64,000 nt of DNA from Bacteroidetes bacterium SB0662_bin_6 (lineage in GTDB: Bacteria > Bacteroidota > Rhodothermia > Rhodothermales > VXPQ01): assembly GCA_009839485.1 (NCBI GenBank), contig VXPQ01000038.1, positions 9,153 to 73,152 of the forward strand, given 5' to 3'. A program made the position numbers and the translations under genes. Shown here piece after piece: positions 8,198 to 60,802 of the stretch. How positions within the stretch are numbered: the first letter of the stretch is position 1; every line of letters begins with the position of its first letter. Under the pieces are notes generated by a model. The model was not told the origin of the DNA, ran no database searches, and worked only from the letters and a program-made list of their open reading frames with translations.

Positions 8198-9169
8198 TTA
8201 CAACGCCGCCTGCATCCTTTTCAGCGTGGCCATCGAAGCCGTTGCGATCAACTCAGGCCCGGGTTCAAAGTCGAACACCTCAAGGGATATCCACTTGTCG
8301 TAGCCATTATCCCGGAAGGCTTGTAACGCCGGCACGTACGTCTCAACGGCATCGCCGGTACCAAGGTACGTGCCGTCCATCTCCTGAATCTGGATGTGCC
8401 CGATATGATCGTAATAGGTATGGACCAGTTCGTCAAGCGGACTCGTTTCGTCTGCCGTGTTGTGAAAATCGAACATGGTCGAGACAGCCGGGTGGTTGAC
8501 CGCCTCGACCACAGTCAGCGCTTCGCCCAGCGTATTGATCACATCCGTCTGATCGCTGGACAACGGTTCAAGCAGCAACTGCACGCCATGCCCGGCAATG
8601 GACGGCGCCACGTCACGCAATCCGTTCGTCAGGTGCTCGACCGCCTCCCCGGTTGAAATACCCACCGAAGAACGCTGTCCGGGCGAACCGAAAATCATCA
8701 CCTTACCGCCAAGGTTCGCACAAAACTCCGCAAGTTTCACCATGTACTCCCAGCTCCTGCGGCGAATGGCCTCGTCGGGCGTGGTGGTATGCAGGCCTTC
8801 CGGCGTCACAAGCAGCCAGTGTAATCCCAGAATATCCACACCGGCTTCCTCGGCAATGCCCCGAAGTTCGGCCCGACGATCCGTCGATATGTCGTCTACA
8901 TGATCGCCCAGCGTAAAGGGCGCTACCTCAATCCCCTCATACCCCGCCTCGGCGGCGTACCTGCACTGCCGCGCCCAGTCCCAATCCTGCATGATCTCGT
9001 TGCAGATGGCGTATTTCCAGGAAGGTTGTACAACCGTTCCGGCGCCTTCTCCCGTCCCGGCGCCTTCCCCACCGCACCCGGAAACAAGTCCCCCGAAAGC
9101 GAATCCTCCGAGAGCAATGGATGAAGTTTCTAAAAAACGGCGGCGGTCCATGCGCTGCATAGCTGACAA
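8198..9169 (-). CDS. TAT-exported lipoprotein, sugar phosphate isomerase/epimerase (xylose-isomerase-like TIM barrel)
   Basis: Twin-arginine motif MDRRRFLETS followed by lipobox LVSGCGG. An 18-bp duplicated linker encodes GEGAGT GEGAGT. The body resembles AP-endonuclease-2/xylose-isomerase-like TIM barrels (HWLLVTPEG, MFDFHNTADE, HIQIQE). Confidence 0.7.
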   Translation of the reverse strand: MSAMQRMDRRRFLETSSIALGGFAFGGLVSGCGGEGAGTGEGAGTVVQPSWKYAICNEIMQDWDWARQCRYAAEAGYEGIEVAPFTLGDHVDDISTDRRAELRGIAEEAGVDILGLHWLLVTPEGLHTTTPDEAIRRRSWEYMVKLAEFCANLGGKVMIFGSPGQRSSVGISTGEAVEHLTNGLRDVAPSIAGHGVQLLLEPLSSDQTDVINTLGEALTVVEAVNHPAVSTMFDFHNTADETSPLDELVHTYYDHIGHIQIQEMDGTYLGTGDAVETYVPALQAFRDNGYDKWISLEVFDFEPGPELIATASMATLKRMQAAL

Positions 9170-9209
9170 AGGGTTTACACAGAAAAAATGCGATACGGGT
9201 AAGCGGTTA

Positions 9210-9283
9210 AGGATACTCTGATTAAGTCCGCAAAGCTCAGAGGCTGAAAGGGATTCGCTGGCAAGGAATGACGAAGCAGTGGG
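9210..9283 (+). repeat. Solo arm of the GGATACTCTGAT repeat family
   Basis: 9211-9283 is the reverse complement of 13176-13248 with scattered mismatches. Compare ggatactctgattaagtccgcaaagctcagagg...gctggcaaggaatgacgaag with cttcgtcattccttgccagcg...cctcagag..cttaatcagagtatcc. Confidence 0.8.
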
Positions 9284-10399
9284 CTATTCCGCAAAATCCC
9301 GGTAGGCGGCCTCTACATCCTCAGGCGCCGGATGCCCGGAAAAAAGCAGAACCCGATGGCGCAGTGTGGCAGACGCCCCCGGCGCCAGCGCGAAATGCAG
9401 GGCTTCCGCTCCTTCACTGAAAACAGCCTGTCCAAATGGATTGGCCGCAAACAGGCCATAGTCGCGCGCATGCCAGTAGGTCGGAAACCCCGGGTTCCGG
9501 GGATGATCGAGCACCGCGACCGTCACCGGACGATCCCGGATCGTTCCGGAGAGCGTCATCCAGCGGGCGCGCTTCCCCCAGACATCAGGATATCCCGCAA
9601 TCCCCTCGCTGTTGCGGTATTGCCCGGTCACATGTTCGTTGTCCGTCGTGCTCATTACAGAACCGTCATTCGCAAGCACATCCACAGGACGGCCCGAAGG
9701 CATTTCCAGCGCGCGCGTGACCCGTAAACCAAGGGCTCCTTCCTTGTTGTCGTCGAAAGACACCTCCCGGTCCAGCGCGGTCAGCGTCGTGATGCGATCG
9801 ACGACACGGAGATCGGCCTCGGCGTGAAACACGAAGCGGGTATCCTCGCGAAGGAGCACCGTGCCGTCCGGAGCGAGCCAATCCATCGTGACATGAAGCG
9901 CGCCGCGTCCCTCCCCGCTTTCGGCTTGCGTGACCGCCCGGTGACGAATCGTGCCCATCGAAGCGGCGCGCTCGGCGGATACGGCATCCGAATTGTTCCA
10001 GAAATCCAGCCCGTTGATATCGCCGTAATTGAACCACAGGCCAATATGATGCGGGTGATCCACGCGCTCGCCCGCTGTCTGCTCCAGGGGATACCCCCGC
10101 GTCACGGCGATGCCGGATGCCGTCCGCAACGGATACAGCACCGGCTTCTTAAGCACGGAAAGCGTGTCCGCATACAGGTACGCGGTGAACACCTCCCCAT
10201 CGACCAGCACATCCACGCGCTGCGCCGCCGAATCCGGCACTACAAGAACCTGCGGCGTATCGAGATCCTGCCCAACCGCGAGGCCGGGGAAAGCGCCCGA
10301 CACAGGAATCAATGCCGCAAGAACGAACCATGCCCCCCACCCGAAAAAGAGCCGTCTGCGCAAGAGTCCCCCGACGCCGTGTACAGCCATGAAACCCAT
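9284..10399 (-). CDS. PmoA-like DUF6807 family protein (secreted)
   Basis: Has an N-terminal signal sequence. The motif DHPHHIGLWFNYGDINGLDFWN is characteristic, from memory, of the DUF6807/PmoA-like family that accompanies Gfo/Idh/MocA oxidoreductases. Confidence 0.6.
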   Translation of the reverse strand: MGFMAVHGVGGLLRRRLFFGWGAWFVLAALIPVSGAFPGLAVGQDLDTPQVLVVPDSAAQRVDVLVDGEVFTAYLYADTLSVLKKPVLYPLRTASGIAVTRGYPLEQTAGERVDHPHHIGLWFNYGDINGLDFWNNSDAVSAERAASMGTIRHRAVTQAESGEGRGALHVTMDWLAPDGTVLLREDTRFVFHAEADLRVVDRITTLTALDREVSFDDNKEGALGLRVTRALEMPSGRPVDVLANDGSVMSTTDNEHVTGQYRNSEGIAGYPDVWGKRARWMTLSGTIRDRPVTVAVLDHPRNPGFPTYWHARDYGLFAANPFGQAVFSEGAEALHFALAPGASATLRHRVLLFSGHPAPEDVEAAYRDFAE

Positions 10400-10402
10400 T
10401 GT

Positions 10403-11788
10403 TCAACTCACGACGACATCCATCTTCTGCATATCGAAGGTGATCCGCTTGCCGGTATGCAGCGCGGCGATCGTCATGCAGAGCGCCACGGAATGGTTCC
10501 AGGCAGCATGAATGTCCGCATTGGGTGTCTCGCGAGAGCGCACGCATTCCATCCAGTTGCGCATGTGCGCCATGGTGGCGTCATCGCCGCCGGTGTTTGC
10601 CGCCGTGGCCACGCCCCCCACCTCGTCCAGCTTCATTTCATTGAGCTGGAACGGCTGCATACCCATGGTAACGGCATGGCGCTCGGTCAGCCCTCCGTCC
10701 GGACTCACGGTGTTCGTATCGAGGTTCAGGGTGCCCCCGTTGGAATAATAGAGTTCCCGGACCCCGCCGGCCGCGTTCGTCTGCCGGGAAGAATACACCA
10801 CCTGAAACCCGCCGGTGGCGTCATCCAGCGGACCGTAATCATAGACCGCGGTCATCGTATCGAAATTCTTTCGCCCGTCCTTCCACAGGTAAATGCCGCC
10901 GTTGCCGACTACGCTGCGGGGATACGGCAGGCCGCTAAACCAGTGTACGGTATCGATCTGGTGCACCATCCATTGACCGGGAATACCGGAGGAGTACGGC
11001 CAGAATAACCGGTATTCGAGATATTTCCGCGGGTCCCATGCCTCATACGGGCGGTTCATCAGATAGCGCGTCCAGTCCGTATCCGATTCCTTGATGGACG
11101 CCACCAGATTCGGACGCCGCCACCGTCCGGGCTGGTTTACATTCCAGGTCATATGCGCCGCCACAATATCGCCGAACTTTCCGGAGCGGATATACTCGTT
11201 GGCGGCCATGTAATTCGAGGCGCTGCGGCGCTGGGTACCCACTTGCAGCACGCGATCCGACGCCGTAATCCTCTCCAGGGCCAGATTGGCGTCCCCCATC
11301 GTGTTGGCGAACGGCTTTTCGACATACACGTCGCATCCGGCTTCGACAGCTTCAATGGCATGCAGCGCATGCTGAAAATCCGCGGTGGAGATGACTACCG
11401 CATCGACCATGCCGGAGTCGTACAGTTCCTCGTTGTTGCGCATCGCCTTGACCCCGTCGCCTCCCTCAAGACCGGCTTCCGCGCGCTGCGCTTGCACAAA
11501 TGCCGTTCCCTCTTCGCGCCGGCGGTTCCAGATATCGGACACGGCCACGATATCGAAATTCATGTCCCTGGCGGAAGCAAGCAGTGACGGAATGAGCGAT
11601 CCGCGCGCCCGATCGGAAAAGCCCACGACACCGACGCGGACGCGATCGTTCGCCCCGAGGATGCGTCCGTAACTCTTCGAGGTCATACCGCTCGTAATGA
11701 TGCCACCCCCAAGCATGCCGCCGGCCGCACCGGCGGTCATGGTTTTGAGAAAGCTCCTGCGAGATGATGAGGTTCGCTTGTGCGTCAT
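10403..11788 (-). CDS. Gfo/Idh/MocA family oxidoreductase with TAT signal
   Basis: TAT motif SSRRSFLKTM. Rossmann N-terminal domain VRVGVVGFSDRARGSLIP, and EKPFANT typical of the Gfo/Idh/MocA family. Confidence 0.8.
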   Translation of the reverse strand: MTHKRTSSSRRSFLKTMTAGAAGGMLGGGIITSGMTSKSYGRILGANDRVRVGVVGFSDRARGSLIPSLLASARDMNFDIVAVSDIWNRRREEGTAFVQAQRAEAGLEGGDGVKAMRNNEELYDSGMVDAVVISTADFQHALHAIEAVEAGCDVYVEKPFANTMGDANLALERITASDRVLQVGTQRRSASNYMAANEYIRSGKFGDIVAAHMTWNVNQPGRWRRPNLVASIKESDTDWTRYLMNRPYEAWDPRKYLEYRLFWPYSSGIPGQWMVHQIDTVHWFSGLPYPRSVVGNGGIYLWKDGRKNFDTMTAVYDYGPLDDATGGFQVVYSSRQTNAAGGVRELYYSNGGTLNLDTNTVSPDGGLTERHAVTMGMQPFQLNEMKLDEVGGVATAANTGGDDATMAHMRNWMECVRSRETPNADIHAAWNHSVALCMTIAALHTGKRITFDMQKMDVVVS

Positions 11789-11828
11789 GATGATTCCGGA
11801 AAGGTATGTTCAGTAAATGCCTGTTTCG

Positions 11829-12713
11829 TTACGCCGCCATCCCGGCAAGCACGCCCCGCATGTATGCAAAGGATTGCTTCATACCCGGTAACGGGTCCCT
11901 GGCGTCAATCTCGTATTCGAGGTTCACGTAGCCCTGATAGTTCATCTCCACCAGCTGCCTGAAAATGTCGGCTACAGGCATGGCGCCTTCACCCACAATG
12001 CACTGGCTGTCCCGATCGCTCATGTCCCGCAGATCCTTCATATGGACATCCAGCAGGCGGTCACCCGCTTCGGCAATGGATTCCACCACATCCACGCCGG
12101 TTCGGGCCGTATGCCCGACATCGATGCACAAACCCACGCGCGGGTCCATATCCCGGATCACTTCGAGACCATCCCGCGGTCCCGGGAAATGCGGGTCTTC
12201 CGGGCCGTGGTTGTGAATGGCTACGCTAATGTCGTATTCCTTGACGAATCGTTCGATCCGGGGCATGTTTTTCGCAGTCGGGGCGATGACCAGCATAGGA
12301 ATGCCGACGGCCCTGGCGTATTCGAAAAACATGCGGACATGATCATCGTCGTCTTTATCGATCGTATTGTTTCCTCCGCTTACGAGTTCGATACCCGCCC
12401 GCGCAAATTCCCGCACACCCGACGCCAGGTCTTCCGGGGAATCTTCATAGGGCATGTGGAACGACTTGACGCTGACATGCTCCACATGCAATGCCTGGAC
12501 CATGGAGATGGCCTCGGTCCGGTCGAATCTGCGCAGCGAATAGGTGGCTACGCCAAGGGTAAAAGGTATGTGTCCATCGGAACGCTTTTCCCTGAAAGGG
12601 GAAGCGGCGCCGGCGGCGTACGGAGCAAATCCGACCCCTGCGGAAGCGAGGGCGGCTGTTTTGACGAATCGACGACGGGTCAGATCGCGAAAAGACATGA
12701 CAGGTACCTGCAC
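11829..12713 (-). CDS. TAT-signal sugar phosphate isomerase/epimerase (xylose-isomerase-like TIM barrel)
   Basis: TAT motif LTRRRFVKTAALASAG. TIM-barrel body with IHNHGPED, CIDVGHTARTG, HMKD, NLEYE. Confidence 0.72.
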   Translation of the reverse strand: MQVPVMSFRDLTRRRFVKTAALASAGVGFAPYAAGAASPFREKRSDGHIPFTLGVATYSLRRFDRTEAISMVQALHVEHVSVKSFHMPYEDSPEDLASGVREFARAGIELVSGGNNTIDKDDDDHVRMFFEYARAVGIPMLVIAPTAKNMPRIERFVKEYDISVAIHNHGPEDPHFPGPRDGLEVIRDMDPRVGLCIDVGHTARTGVDVVESIAEAGDRLLDVHMKDLRDMSDRDSQCIVGEGAMPVADIFRQLVEMNYQGYVNLEYEIDARDPLPGMKQSFAYMRGVLAGMAA

Positions 12714-12928
12714 TTGTTAAGAAAACAGTCCGGCCCGCACAGAAACACGAAGCGGAACGGGCTCGCTCGTCCTGTACGAACACTTTTTTACCGGAGGCCT
12801 TATAGCCTGATCCCCGACCGCGAAAAATACCGGACAGAGACGGAAGTATAACCATCGGAGCATTGTCCGTAAAGAGCAGAACGCCGCTAATAACCGGGCA
12901 AACGCGCTGTTTTCACAAATACCTTATC

Positions 12929-13249
12929 AGGATACTCTGATCAAAGTCGCTGCGTACAGTATCTTTCGACCTGTTCCACAGTGCTTTCAGTACAGGATAC
13001 TCTGATCAAAACCGCTTCCCTCAGCGCGTCACGTTCGTGCGTAAAGGATTCATGATCGCATTGTTGAAACCAGCAGAAAACACTGTAGATTCGGTACGTT
13101 GTGGACGTGACGCGCCCTTCGGGAGACTGCGAGGGGTGCGCTGGCTGTGTCATTCCTCATTACGTGGGGCCTGCCACGCTTCTTCGTCATTCCTTGCCAG
13201 CGCACCCCTCGCAGTCTCTGAGGTTTGAGGACTTAATCAGAGTATCCTG
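12929..13249. mobile_element. MITE-like element(s) with CAGGATACTCTGAT terminal inverted repeats
   Basis: caggatactctgatcaaa occurs directly at 12929 and 12994, and inverted as cttaatcagagtatcctg ending at 13249. The spans are therefore 321 bp or 256 bp. Inside is a perfect 23-bp inverted repeat (13124-13146 and 13197-13219) with a 50-nt loop. No coding capacity and no clear target-site duplication. Confidence 0.6.
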
Positions 13250-13280
13250 CAAAAAATCCAGCAAAAAACCTGCCTGTTCC

Positions 13281-14081
13281 ATGCACAGCGCCCCCCGCTT
13301 CCTCGTGCCCCTCTTCCTTGTTGCGGCTTTTTCGCTCGTCACCAGCGGCAGCGCCGACGCCCAAGGGTGGAGCGTCACGGAAGTACAATATCAGGTGGGC
13401 TCCGCACTCGAGGAGCACGCCGTGAGCCCCACCGGAACACAGCACCTGATCACATTCCAGCATGCCAGCGGCTGGAGTCTTGGCGAGAATTTTTTCTTTG
13501 TGGATATGGCGTGCTGCAAAGGCGCCGGGGGCGCTAACCGGGATATATATATGGAATGGTATCCATTCCTCAGCCTCGGGGCGCTCACGGGGCACGAAAT
13601 TGCATGGGGGCCCATCCGGGGCGTAGGTCCGCTGGGAGGAATAAACTGGGGAGCGCAAGGAAAGGTACTGAAGATCACACCCGGGTTCCGGCTGCAACTG
13701 GATCTGCCTGGCTTCGCCTTCGCAAACCTCGACTATGTGTATCTCGTGGATCGCAGTGCAGGACTCACCGAAGGCGGCGCACCCAAAGACGACAACAGCC
13801 ACCTCATCGATTTCAACTGGGCGCTGCCGTTCAATATCGGCGGCGGCGCATTCTCCCTGGAAGGACATGCCGAGTGGCAAAGCAGCCGGAATACCGAAGT
13901 CGGTGATGCGCCGTACTGGATCCTGATGCAACCCCAGCTACGCCTCGATGTCGGCAAGGCGCTCGCCGGAAGCCCGGGACGCTTTTTTGCAGGAACCGAA
14001 ATGCATATCTGGATCAACAAGTTCGGCTTCGAGGACGCCGACGAGGTCATTCCCCAGTTTCTCGCGGTATTTCGTTTTTAG
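13281..14081 (+). CDS. Outer-membrane beta-barrel protein, possibly Tsx/OmpK-like
   Basis: The ORF-track start (13101) runs through the repeat element. The ATG at 13281 gives the signal peptide MHSAPRFLVPLFLVAAFSLVTSGSADAQ. Has aromatic-rich beta-strand periodicity and a C-terminal ...FLAVFRF. The family call is tentative. Confidence 0.45.
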   Translation: MHSAPRFLVPLFLVAAFSLVTSGSADAQGWSVTEVQYQVGSALEEHAVSPTGTQHLITFQHASGWSLGENFFFVDMACCKGAGGANRDIYMEWYPFLSLGALTGHEIAWGPIRGVGPLGGINWGAQGKVLKITPGFRLQLDLPGFAFANLDYVYLVDRSAGLTEGGAPKDDNSHLIDFNWALPFNIGGGAFSLEGHAEWQSSRNTEVGDAPYWILMQPQLRLDVGKALAGSPGRFFAGTEMHIWINKFGFEDADEVIPQFLAVFRF

Positions 14082-28299: not shown

Positions 28300-28375
28300 T
28301 GGAGCCAACGACCGGACTTGAACCGGTGACCTGCTCATTACGAGTGAGCTGCTCTACCAACTGAGCTACGTTGGC
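28300..28375 (-). tRNA. tRNA-Thr (anticodon CGU), CCA encoded
   Basis: The reverse complement folds as a cloverleaf: acceptor gccaacg/cgttggc, D arm gctc-agttggta-gagc, anticodon arm gctca-CTCGTAA-tgagc, T arm accgg-ttcaagt-ccggt, discriminator t, then cca. Confidence 0.9.
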
Positions 28376-46766: not shown

Positions 46767-46800
46767 CATAAGCCGGCCCAGTCCCTCACCGGCCCTTTCC

Positions 46801-55625: not shown

Positions 55626-56414
55626 CTACCCTGTCTCCGCCTCATCATTCAGCGCCATGAGAAGGCGCACGCCTCTCAGCACCAGATATTCGTCTGCCCG
55701 ATCGACTTCCGGCGCCTGTTCTGCGAGCAGGTAACTCCATCCGCCGGTAGCCACTGCAAACGCTTCCCCCTGCAGTGTTTCCCGAATTCGGCGGAGGAGG
55801 CCGCGTACGCCCTCCACGAATCCGTACATGATTCCGGATTGCATGGCTTCCGCCGTCGACCGGCCGACAAGAATGCGCGGCCACTCCGGAGCCACATCGG
55901 GAAGTTGCGCCGTGCCCCGGTGCAATGCATTCAGGGCAAGTTCCGGGCCGGGACCGATCGTGCCCCCGGCATAGACGCCGCTCCGACGCACGACCTCGCA
56001 GGTAACGGCGCTGCCCGCATCGACGACGATCACGTGACGGGGATCGCCGTCCTGCGACGATTTTCCGTATTCGAACCAGGCGGCGGCAGCGGCGGCAAGA
56101 CGATCGACTCCGAGGGTATCCGGGCTGGTGGAGTCCAGTTGGAACGGCAGCCGCATCGTAGAACGAATTTGTACCGTAGCGTGGCCTCGATCCTTGAGGA
56201 GACGGGTCAGACATGCGGCGGAATCCGGCACGACGGACGCTATCCCGGCCCGGTCTATGCTATGTCCGGCATCACGCACCCGGCTTATAGCTGCGTCCAG
56301 CCGGGCTTCCATCCCTGCAGGGTCGTGCGGCAGTGAGAACGCATGGCGCAGCAGGTCTCCCTCGAACGCGCCCCCCTTGATCGCGCTGTTTCCTATGTCG
56401 AACGTGAGCCACAT
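55626..56414 (-). CDS. coaX: Type III pantothenate kinase
   Basis: MWLTFDIGNSAIKGG (DxGNT/S motif), VDAGSAVT, and GGTIGPG. Confidence 0.88.
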   Translation of the reverse strand: MWLTFDIGNSAIKGGAFEGDLLRHAFSLPHDPAGMEARLDAAISRVRDAGHSIDRAGIASVVPDSAACLTRLLKDRGHATVQIRSTMRLPFQLDSTSPDTLGVDRLAAAAAAWFEYGKSSQDGDPRHVIVVDAGSAVTCEVVRRSGVYAGGTIGPGPELALNALHRGTAQLPDVAPEWPRILVGRSTAEAMQSGIMYGFVEGVRGLLRRIRETLQGEAFAVATGGWSYLLAEQAPEVDRADEYLVLRGVRLLMALNDEAETG

Positions 56415-56433
56415 GGATTTCGCTGGTTAATAC

Positions 56434-56472
56434 AGGATACTCTGAGCGAAGTGGTTTTGATCGGAGTATCCT
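56434..56472. repeat. Minimal hairpin made of two GGATACTC(T/C)GA termini
   Basis: caggatactctga-gcgaagtggttttga-tcggagtatcctat. The two arms are inverted copies of the family terminus. It lies between coaX and birA, and its right arm touches the birA stop codon. Confidence 0.75.
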
Positions 56473-57334
56473 ATCCCGTGGTCACTTCGCCGGCATGAAA
56501 GGTCCGCATACCCTCGTCGGTGGCGAGCAGAAGACCGCCGGTCTCCCCCAGTCCTGCTACAATGCCCTGCACAGAACCGCTTCCGTGCGCAAAACGGAGT
56601 TCCGCCGGAGCATTCAGGTTATACATACGGCGCATGTACCGCTTCCCCACGGCGACGGCATCTTCTTCGAGGCGGTCAAGCGCTTGTTCGAGGCGATCGA
56701 ATACGGCGGCGAGCAGATGAGCGCGGTGAATCGTGCGCCCGGTGGCCAGCAAAAGCGATGTAGCCTGTGGTTCGATATCGGTCGGGAACGTGTCCTCGTT
56801 GACGTTTATGCCGATGCCGAGAATGACCGCGCGGGATGCATGGGAAGCCTGTCCCGCTCCGGCGGATTCAAGTAACATCCCGCAGCATTTCCGCTCGTCG
56901 ATCAGGATATCGTTGGGCCATTTTATCTGCGTGCATACGGGCGCCGTAAAGCTGTCGACGGCTTCCGACGCCGCCACGCAGGCAGCTATCGTAATGAGGT
57001 TCCAGCGATCAGGCGCCAGCACCGGACGCAGGATCACGGAAAAGGTCAGATTGAGACCGCTGCGCGCCGACCACGCGCGCCCCATGCGTCCCCGCCCTTT
57101 CGTCTGGAGCTCCGCGTACACGACCGCCCCGTTCGGCGCTCCCGCCGTCGCCCAGTCCAGAGCAAGATCGTTCGTGGAAGTCACGGTATCGTACGCCCGG
57201 ATTTCCTTCCCGATATAGCCTTGCCGGCCGGCGTACTGCGTATCGAGCAGACGGCGGGCCTCATGAGCAGGGCCGCCCGTTATCTCTCGCAGAGACGTGA
57301 CCATGGGGCGCATCGGTCTTTCCCGGGCATTCAT
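56471..57334 (-). CDS. birA: Biotin--[acetyl-CoA-carboxylase] ligase
   Basis: Contains the GRGRxGRxW motif (KGRGRMGRAWSA) and KWPNDILI. No obvious N-terminal HTH. The start may be an internal Met. Confidence 0.88.
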   Translation of the reverse strand: MNARERPMRPMVTSLREITGGPAHEARRLLDTQYAGRQGYIGKEIRAYDTVTSTNDLALDWATAGAPNGAVVYAELQTKGRGRMGRAWSARSGLNLTFSVILRPVLAPDRWNLITIAACVAASEAVDSFTAPVCTQIKWPNDILIDERKCCGMLLESAGAGQASHASRAVILGIGINVNEDTFPTDIEPQATSLLLATGRTIHRAHLLAAVFDRLEQALDRLEEDAVAVGKRYMRRMYNLNAPAELRFAHGSGSVQGIVAGLGETGGLLLATDEGMRTFHAGEVTTG

Positions 57335-60437: not shown

Positions 60438-60802
60438 GGGGATGACATGGTTTCGACGGGTGGTATTCGCGCTGCAAGTTGCGTGTCGAGCTCCTCAGTC
60501 CAGCTCGTTAATATGACTGGGAACTGGTAAATGCGAACGATTACTCGTACGCGATGGCGGCGTAAGCCCCATCTGTCCAATGCATTGCTCGTTCATCGGC
60601 ATGCATTAGGGCACCGACTCAGATGAACCCGCTGCGGTCCGTACCGGCTGAACAGGCCGCAGTCAAAACAATCAGCCTTTGCTTGCATCCGGCTCTTGTC
60701 GGGCGGCTCTTGATGCAGGTGAGCACGAAAGACCGACTACACACGTAGACGCTTGTCGGTACGGCCATTCGGACGCGGGTTCGACTCCCGCCATCTCCAC
60801 CA
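60438..60802 (+). ncRNA. ssrA: tmRNA (SsrA), one-piece, tag ANDYSYAMAA
   Basis: The 5' end ggggatgacatggtttcgacggg pairs with the 3' end catctcc-a-cca (one G-U). T-arm ggacgcgggttcgactcccgcc. The tag ORF is gcg aac gat tac tcg tac gcg atg gcg gcg taa (60533-60565). Confidence 0.9.

Follow-up and report, generated by a model that had tools for sequence, protein, structure and literature searches.

Introduction

The MITEs of bacteria (miniature transposable elements with inverted repeats) are short, non-coding elements that carry terminal inverted repeats and are flanked by a short target duplication (PMC10969869; PMC3184786). They occur in many copies, target A/T-rich intergenic DNA, and their transcripts are predicted to form very stable stem-loops (PMC10969869; PMC3184786). 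MITEs of type II resemble their autonomous insertion sequence (IS) only in the terminal repeats (PMC10969869). Here we describe an element at positions 12995-13247 of a 64-kb window, by which we mean the whole stretch of DNA that was analysed (64,000 nucleotides of contig VXPQ01000038.1 of Bacteroidetes bacterium SB0662_bin_6, order Rhodothermales). The element lies upstream of a gene for a Tsx/OmpK-type outer-membrane channel, referred to below as tsx, and we regard it as a non-autonomous type II MITE that was spread among Rhodothermales by an IS5-type transposase, with a probability of roughly 0.9.

Several other classes of elements are relevant for comparison. IS5, with ends reading GGAAGGTGCGAATAAG, duplicates YTAR (CTAA) at its target. 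REP/BIME sequences are imperfect palindromes of 20-40 nt that are associated with RAYT and have neither terminal repeats nor a target duplication. The PATE of IS200/IS605 also lack terminal inverted repeats and duplication, and insert 3' of a fixed tetra- or pentanucleotide. Porphyromonas gingivalis, also of the Bacteroidota-Rhodothermota lineage, reportedly carries a MITE with an embedded minisatellite, i.e. with a tandem-repeat interior, which belongs to a different sequence family. Repeats that are active as RNA include the Correia elements of Neisseria, ERIC/IRU of enterobacteria, RUP and BOX of pneumococci, and bcr1 of Bacillus cereus. No description of the Rhodothermales family, or of the source accession, was found in the searchable literature. 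The family is new, while its kind is well known, both as a bacterial MITE and as an element landing upstream of a gene.

Results

A complete MITE copy and a solo terminus

The 14-mer CAGGATACTCTGAT occurs twice in direct and once in inverted orientation upstream of tsx, as a preliminary description of the locus had noted. The exact matches are at 12928-12941 (+), 12993-13006 (+) and 13236-13249 (-), so that the two direct copies start one base before the positions given earlier (12929 and 12994). When up to two mismatches were allowed, the 14-mer had 8 matches in the window compared to 0.17 expected, a number reached by 0 of 100 shuffles. The outer spans between the 14-mers are 257 and 322 bp rather than 256 and 321 bp, and the element proper, GGATAC...GTATCC, measures 253 bp, or 257 bp (12993-13249) if two covarying outer bases per side are counted. 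It can be aligned end to end with 40 other copies. Both ends carry the 12-mer core GGATACTCTGAT and the arms reach ∼30 nt; the terminal repeats pair across ∼20-30 nt (12995-13024 with 13218-13247), and the 32-nt inverted repeat I1 (12993-13024 / 13218-13249), which comprises the left arm and the two outer bases, is 78% complementary.

The interior consists of nested hairpins in a Y shape, with a terminal stem, a variable arm, and a conserved arm (Table 1). This architecture accounts for the perfect 23-bp inverted repeat with a 50-nt loop that had been reported, although with its arms placed one base too high; they lie at 13123-13145 and 13196-13218. No tandem repeats of the interior appear in the repeat listings examined, and nested hairpins distinguish the family from the minisatellite MITE of P. 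gingivalis.

Two nested or abutting copies had been considered at this site. Instead, there is one complete MITE and, separated from it by 44 bp of native DNA, a solo terminus of ∼21 bp whose 14-mer lies 65 bp upstream of that of the MITE and which is the stump of a second copy, older or truncated. The intervening 12949-12992 (GCTGCGTACAGTATCTTTCGACCTGTTCC...) is alignable to all four orthologous loci described below and is therefore native intergenic DNA, and in the ortholog alignment unrelated sequence, CGCACCGGCATAAAAC in L149, stands where the window has 12928-12948. A reading as a 322-bp element is thus wrong, because only about 12928-12948 is element-derived in this part. Together, the MITE and the solo terminus occupy about half of the 567-bp divergent region, less than the larger part attributed to the element before.

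A high-copy family in uncultured Rhodothermales

A terminus scan with AGGATACTCTGATYAARNYC over one genome per species returned at least 120 eight-kb blocks. Among the matches listed, 115 blocks came from 10 Rhodothermales metagenome-assembled genomes (MAGs), six of them chromosome-level, and the remaining 5 were single matches in unrelated taxa. We built a family profile from 41 full copies and searched it with nhmmer, which gave at least 194 matches, including 53 of near full length, in the 115 blocks of the 10 MAGs and the window. In a second scan, independent of the first, a 21-mer from the MITE core retrieved at least 120 loci from metagenome contigs. Here, at least 230 further nhmmer matches were found, and the core was always within a terminus-bounded element among the matches listed. 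The element family is high-copy in a clade of uncultured Rhodothermales, and its terminal motif is not confined to the window. Viral contigs, when searched, gave 22 single chance matches to the terminus pattern and 0 to the core pattern, and carriage by phages was rejected on these grounds.

Distances from terminus to terminus, measured between GGATAC cores, peak sharply at 253-256 bp; further size classes comprise one of 36-37 bp that has termini only, a range of intermediate lengths, and a small number of long pairs. Short members are internal deletions that removed whole hairpins, and both termini were always retained. Near-full copies are intergenic without exception (53 genome and 79 metagenome copies, 132 of 132, among the matches listed), in DNA that is ∼85% coding. 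Some members have terminal repeats that are altered on both arms together, to GGAGAC...GTCTCC and GGACAC...GTGTCC (L165:2871-3128 and L127:961-1213; 12 + 4 termini overall). End-to-end pairing has thus been kept even in the core that would be bound by the transposase.

The preliminary description had taken the repeats for a dispersed family and not for a local operator, and had pointed to related copies in the window. Such copies are present, as a 76-nt right-end fragment and a 41-bp palindrome (Table 1). The fragment is 88.6% identical to 13179-13248 and is placed between two minus-strand genes; the syntenic intergenic region of L272 lacks it, and the copies in L273 are at other positions. 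The palindrome is a minimal member made of the two terminal repeats only, of which 7 more (40-41 bp) were found in other genomes. A likely start codon on the minus strand (CAT, 56413-56415) follows 17 nt downstream of it. Weaker terminus-like matches occur at 46799 and 50457. A separate observation concerns L273:5950-6080, where a G+C-rich unit of ∼35 nt, GCGGCGGCTTCGGGGCGGCGCGACCGGAATGCGC, occurs three times in tandem beside a weak family match, in the intergenic region that precedes the DUF6807 gene.

Since inverted 14-mers are found here in a divergent promoter region, they might also be taken for a transcription-factor operator of a regulon that includes the porin gene. In all cases, however, the motif forms the end of an element of 40-260 bp whose boundaries are defined, its distance to genes is not fixed, the neighbours in the 10 genomes are unrelated, and four close relatives that keep the genes lack it in this promoter region. 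An operator is hardly credible.

Target-site duplication and an empty site

The four bases outside either end of the copies follow a T-N-N-A pattern. On the left flank T is present in 62 and A in 76 of 79 copies, on the right flank T in 71 and A in 59 of 79, and the sequence beyond these four bases has no such pattern. Left and right flanks agree at positions 2 and 3 in 51/79 and 43/79 copies, compared to 29.7 and 28.6 after permutation (p<2e-4). The metagenome set contains identical left and right 4-mers in 19 of 71 copies, where 5.3 are expected and the maximum in 5000 permutations was 13; bases farther out match at only ∼30%. Insertion is thus accompanied by a 4-bp TNNA duplication, and the preferred target of the family is TWWA (TTAA, TATA, TAAA).

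Four syntenic loci (L149, L145, L146, and L148) were found via Tsx orthologues of 90 (L149), 86, 79 (L146), and 77% identity. Their gene order is TIM-barrel gene (-), tsx (+), and BCCT transporter (-), and none of the four has a MITE at the site upstream of tsx. L149 provides a clean empty site, with TTTCAG-CACA-AGAAACCCAGC in place of the TTTCAG-TACA-[253 bp]-TGCA-AAAAATCCAGC of the window. Copies neighbouring the tsx locus also differ among relatives. Elsewhere in the same intergenic region, L146 has a diverged right-end family fragment (L146:2622-2678) adjoining the start of the TIM-barrel gene, which indicates that the region was hit independently.

A partner insertion sequence of the IS5 family

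A search for a full-length autonomous element uncovered a ∼1.18-kb IS with the same termini in related genomes. The copy at L122:1151-2331 (OZ252093) is 1181 bp long, has the same 12-mer ends and TATA/TATA flanks, and encodes a 315-aa protein with the domains DDE_Tnp_1 (PF01609, 8e-32) and DUF772 (PF05598, 7e-21). L074 contains a second copy of this type with the same 315-aa open reading frame (ORF). A 1171-bp IS in L150 encodes a transposase 92% identical to that of L122 and is flanked by TTAA/TTAA, and an IS in L151 has a 68% identical transposase, diverged ends (GGAACCTCTGAT), and TTAT/TTAT flanks. The 12-mer termini are identical in the L122, L074, and L150 elements. The transposase shares ∼60% identity with many proteins named IS5 family transposase or InsH. 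Judged by sequence, with a single DDE transposase, a length of ∼1.2 kb, GG ends, and a 4-bp duplication, the partner IS fits the IS5 group of the IS5 family.

Similarity between MITE and IS is confined to the 16-20 terminal bases, with none beyond, and an origin of the MITE as a deletion derivative of the IS was rejected on this account. The two ends can be told apart. In the L122 element, the end distal to the transposase start (IRR) reads GGATACTCTGATCAATCC, and the transposase-start end (IRL) reads GGATACTCTGATTAAGGCC, or GGATACTCTGATTTAATACC in the L150 element; the MITE, with GATCAA in its left and GATTAAG in its right end, shows the same asymmetry as IRR and IRL of the L122 IS.

Being intergenic, palindromic, and present in many copies, the family could also be likened to REP/BIME palindromes handled by RAYT, or to an IS200/IS605 PATE that moves as single-stranded DNA. 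Terminal inverted repeats of 16-30 bp and a 4-bp duplication speak against both, as does an autonomous partner that encodes a DDE transposase and not a Y1 HUH enzyme, and ∼257 bp far exceeds the length of a REP. We judge an affiliation with either class to be very improbable.

Table 1. Coordinates of the MITE, its parts, and other features in the window
Feature	Position	Strand	Remarks
Complete MITE copy	12995-13247	+	253 bp, GGATAC...GTATCC; nhmmer family profile, model positions 2-257, E=3e-82
Left terminal inverted repeat and subterminal stem	12995-13024	+	Starts GGATACTCTGATCAAAACC; resembles partner IS IRR
Right terminal inverted repeat	13218-13247	-	GGATACTCTGATTAAGTCC read inwards; resembles partner IS IRL
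Target-site duplication, left copy	12991-12994	.	TACA
Target-site duplication, right copy	13248-13251	.	TGCA, 3/4 identical to left copy
Variable hairpin module	13024-13115	+	Stem 13024-13034 / 13105-13115, 11-bp perfect inverted repeat
Junction hairpin	13115-13123	+	CCCTTCGGG; C(UUCG)G tetraloop if + strand transcribed
Conserved core hairpin	13123-13218	+	Perfect 23-bp inverted repeat, 50-nt loop
Two GTCATTCC repeats in core loop	13149-13156, 13186-13193		
Apical hairpin in core loop	13163-13178		
Solo left-terminus remnant	12928-12948	+	∼21 bp, CAGGATACTCTGATCAAAGTC; direct repeat of MITE left end
Truncated right-end fragment	9210-9285	-	76 nt; nhmmer model positions 182-257, E=5e-21
Minimal member, two terminal repeats only	56433-56473	.	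41 bp
Tsx/OmpK-type nucleoside-specific outer-membrane channel gene	13281-14081	+	266 aa, signal peptide
Xylose-isomerase-like TIM-barrel gene, divergent	11829-12713	-	PF01261, E=1e-18; deposited call (L001) starts 12698
tRNA	28303-28375		Rfam
One-piece tmRNA	60438-60802		Rfam, 185.5 bits

Uneven conservation of the interior and a possible role as RNA

Conservation within the element is uneven. The mean pairwise identity among 41 copies is 0.89 in the terminal repeats, 0.93 in the junction, 0.90 in the core loop, and 0.85 in the core stem, and drops to 0.66 in the variable arm. Among the matches listed, 112 of 132 near-full copies contain the hairpin sequence CCCTTCGGG and 106 of 132 the two GTCATTCC repeats. 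As a single strand, the window MITE has a minimum free energy (MFE) of -131.7 kcal/mol (z=-10.7), and the other strand folds about equally well.

Paired positions change together. At one pair in the stem of the variable hairpin module (alignment columns 37/126), 20 copies have U-A and 17 have G-C, and in the core hairpin G-C to A-U compensations occur at column pairs 146/242, 150/238, and 151/237. Overall, 97 compensatory double-change cells were counted compared to 40 in shuffles, where the observed value was reached by 0 of 500; slid controls collapse. Copies are also oriented with respect to genes, since the MITE is co-oriented with flanking same-direction genes in a ratio of 16:7 on genome contigs and 26:9 on metagenome contigs (42:16 combined, p=9e-4).

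The element has no coding capacity, as had been supposed. Most of the 41 copies contain a minus-strand ORF, MTKQCGRPHIMRND..., with a synonymous fraction of 0.23 compared to 0.24 for random; neither excess variation at codon position 3 nor codon periodicity was found in it. Translation into a small protein was therefore rejected. A known RNA family was likewise rejected: with Rfam 15, no family reached the gathering threshold on the MITE and only the tmRNA and the tRNA did so in the window, and at E<=10 the MITE gave generic, sub-threshold miRNA-hairpin matches only.

An RNA-level role of the interior is possible. In such a scenario the family would be a mobile structured-RNA module, besides or instead of being selfish DNA, that is transcribed in its + orientation together with adjacent genes, acts for example on the stability, processing, or translation of mRNA, and whose copies are retained for that reason. 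The Y-shaped RNA would combine a terminal stem and the C(UUCG)G hairpin with a conserved loop of 64 columns that contains two GUCAUUCC repeats. Stable folding, the excess of compensatory cells, predicted loops conserved like the terminal repeats (0.90 versus 0.89) next to the divergent variable arm, the prevalence of CCCTTCGGG, and co-orientation all argue for it. For many copies, a start or stop codon is no more than a few tens of nt away, so that they must be transcribed, and the C(UUCG)G form is found on the + strand only, among the matches listed, a weak hint that it is the + strand that is transcribed.

Other findings speak against it. Besides the lack of an Rfam match, covarying positions show mismatched intermediates about as often as compensated pairs, and arm-to-arm correction in DNA palindromes would produce such covariation in the absence of selection. 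In the alignment, it is the minus strand that folds better (alifold -75.7 versus -63.7; lower MFE in 33 of 41 copies), and counts of G-U versus A-C pairs are of no help in assigning a strand, because the predicted fold of each strand picks its own wobble pairs. Deletion derivatives have lost the core or the variable arm without preference for either, but both termini are present in all of them. The orientation bias, moreover, is confounded with a replication-direction bias; when local GC skew was used to separate the two, the discordant cases divided 7 versus 5, and orientation biases linked to replication direction have been reported for some IS5-type elements (PMC3971601). Retention of copies as an RNA module is on balance unlikely. 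That the conserved Y-shaped interior, with its C(UUCG)G hairpin and a 23-bp stem whose near-invariant loop holds the two GUCAUUCC repeats, is a functional, strand-specific RNA module, scattered beside dozens of genes by an IS5-type transposase, is rather improbable. If true, such a module would give many transcripts a shared post-transcriptional control or a common protein-binding platform, and the variable arm would lend individual copies a specificity of their own. The uneven conservation and the orientation bias make the family a reasonable candidate for studying RNA-level selection on the interiors of bacterial MITEs.

The tsx locus and its promoter

The position upstream of an outer-membrane protein gene agrees with the preliminary description, with a distance of 31 nt and not 32 nt between the MITE end (13249) and the ATG at 13281. 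Homologues of the encoded protein are named nucleoside-specific channel Tsx and have PF03502; the protein encoded in the window does not itself reach the Pfam threshold. On the other side, the divergent TIM-barrel gene belongs to a minus-strand sugar-modifying run at 8198-12713 that comprises a TIM barrel, DUF6807, a GFO/IDH/MocA oxidoreductase, and a second TIM barrel. The order of these genes is kept in all relatives examined.

The native block at 12949-12992 aligned in 4 of 4 orthologous loci, although conservation is poor in the rest of the intergenic region. The block is a candidate for a native promoter or operator upstream of tsx, and contains TATCTTTC, which resembles the Bacteroidota -7 box, TAnnTTTG. 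Because the MITE is located past this block and 31 nt before the ATG, the tsx transcript would either start inside the MITE or carry a structured leader, and the MITE may thus be part of the tsx leader or a source of the tsx promoter. The sole sigma-70-like match facing tsx in the intergenic region, TTGAAA-16-TAGATT at 13064-13091 (+), lies in the variable arm and is not conserved across subfamilies in an alignment judged by eye. The empty-site locus contains no sigma-70 match, so that the scan carries little weight for this phylum; the consensus may not fit Rhodothermales promoters.

Gene calls at the locus vary. The deposited call of 324 aa in L145:3001-3975 (P0002) has an N-terminal extension compared to the 266-aa orthologues, and our ORF heuristic started tsx in the window at 13101, inside the MITE. 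Members of the family can give rise to spurious N-terminal extensions of gene calls.

Effects on assembly

The window is identical to contig VXWD01000050.1 (GCA_009836085.1) over the parts compared. Logan contig L002, from an independent assembly of run SRR9841433, breaks off within the MITE, as expected for a repeat, and many metagenome contigs likewise end inside a family copy. The family thus breaks short-read assemblies.

We compared nine same-site copy pairs, each of which includes at least one contig from the metagenome scan. In two of them, L127:961-1213 versus L264:10150-10402 and L165:2871-3128 versus L265:6319-6576, the elements are 99-100% identical in flanks of 88-89% identity, and several kb of flanks including genes are ∼88-92% identical. 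Pairs with 98.5-100% identical flanks have elements of 96-98.5% identity, except for one identical 79-nt fragment. Parallel insertion from an active subfamily is unlikely for the two conserved pairs, as the next-closest copies are only ∼88% identical. Identical flank tracts extend over ∼20-30 nt, which is roughly k-mer size, and chimeric assembly through repeats is a plausible cause of the contrasting identities. If real, conserved elements in diverged flanks would indicate strong constraint or localised gene flow.

Discussion

The family's spread over at least ten Rhodothermales genomes and metagenome contigs, the terminal repeats, the target duplication, the empty site, and a matching IS in other genomes are all in favour of a miniature mobile element, as had been proposed. 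The MITE is assigned to type II because its similarity to the IS is limited to the terminal repeats, according to the definition in PMC10969869. Under this reading, the IS5-group DDE transposase of the ∼1.18-kb IS would bind the 16-20-bp terminal repeats (GGATACTCTGAT[C/T]AA) and move the MITE in trans into T-N-N-A tetranucleotides, and repair of the staggered cut would duplicate the 4-bp target. The copy described here would have entered a (C/T)ACA site 31 nt before the tsx-like start codon, downstream of the conserved native block, after the split from the relative with a 90% identical Tsx. Mobilisation in trans, a transposase source in this genome, and an effect on tsx expression are what we infer from these comparisons.

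Several findings weigh against this view. The duplication of the window copy is imperfect (TACA/TGCA), and only about a quarter of copies have identical 4-mers, which suggests that many of the insertions occurred long ago. MITE and transposase are paired on the basis of the termini and the type of duplication, because only 16-20 bases are common to both, and no IS5-type transposase is encoded in the 64-kb window, to which the tblastn search was confined. Moreover, the uneven conservation and the orientation bias are left unexplained by a purely selfish, neutrally decaying element.

Compared to known systems, the Rhodothermales family has in common with type II bacterial MITEs a length below ∼500 bp, the absence of coding capacity, terminal repeats, a target duplication, A/T-rich intergenic targets, and dispersal in many copies whose transcripts would form very stable hairpins. 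Unlike typical members of that class, it has an unusually unevenly conserved interior, with conserved loops beside a variable arm, and an orientation bias relative to neighbouring genes. Its partner IS shares with E. coli IS5, which encodes InsH, ends starting with GG, a single transposase, and a 4-bp duplication at a T-rich tetranucleotide ending in A; the Rhodothermales target is TWWA and not strictly YTAR, and the MITE itself differs in carrying no transposase and in sharing only 16-20 terminal bases with its partner. Like Correia, ERIC, RUP, BOX, and bcr1, which are co-transcribed with their neighbours, the family consists of palindromic or repeat-bounded intergenic repeats with long hairpins, promoter-like sequences, and compensatory changes, and its copies may likewise be transcribed along with adjacent genes. 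There is no sequence similarity to any of these, and the likeness is a functional analogy only.

Recognising the MITE family cleans gene starts and intergenic annotation in Rhodothermales MAGs. The copy described here is a clear, datable landing of a MITE between a conserved upstream block and a nucleoside porin gene's start codon, and the window and L149 form a natural pair, with and without the insertion, for testing whether expression is rewired by it.

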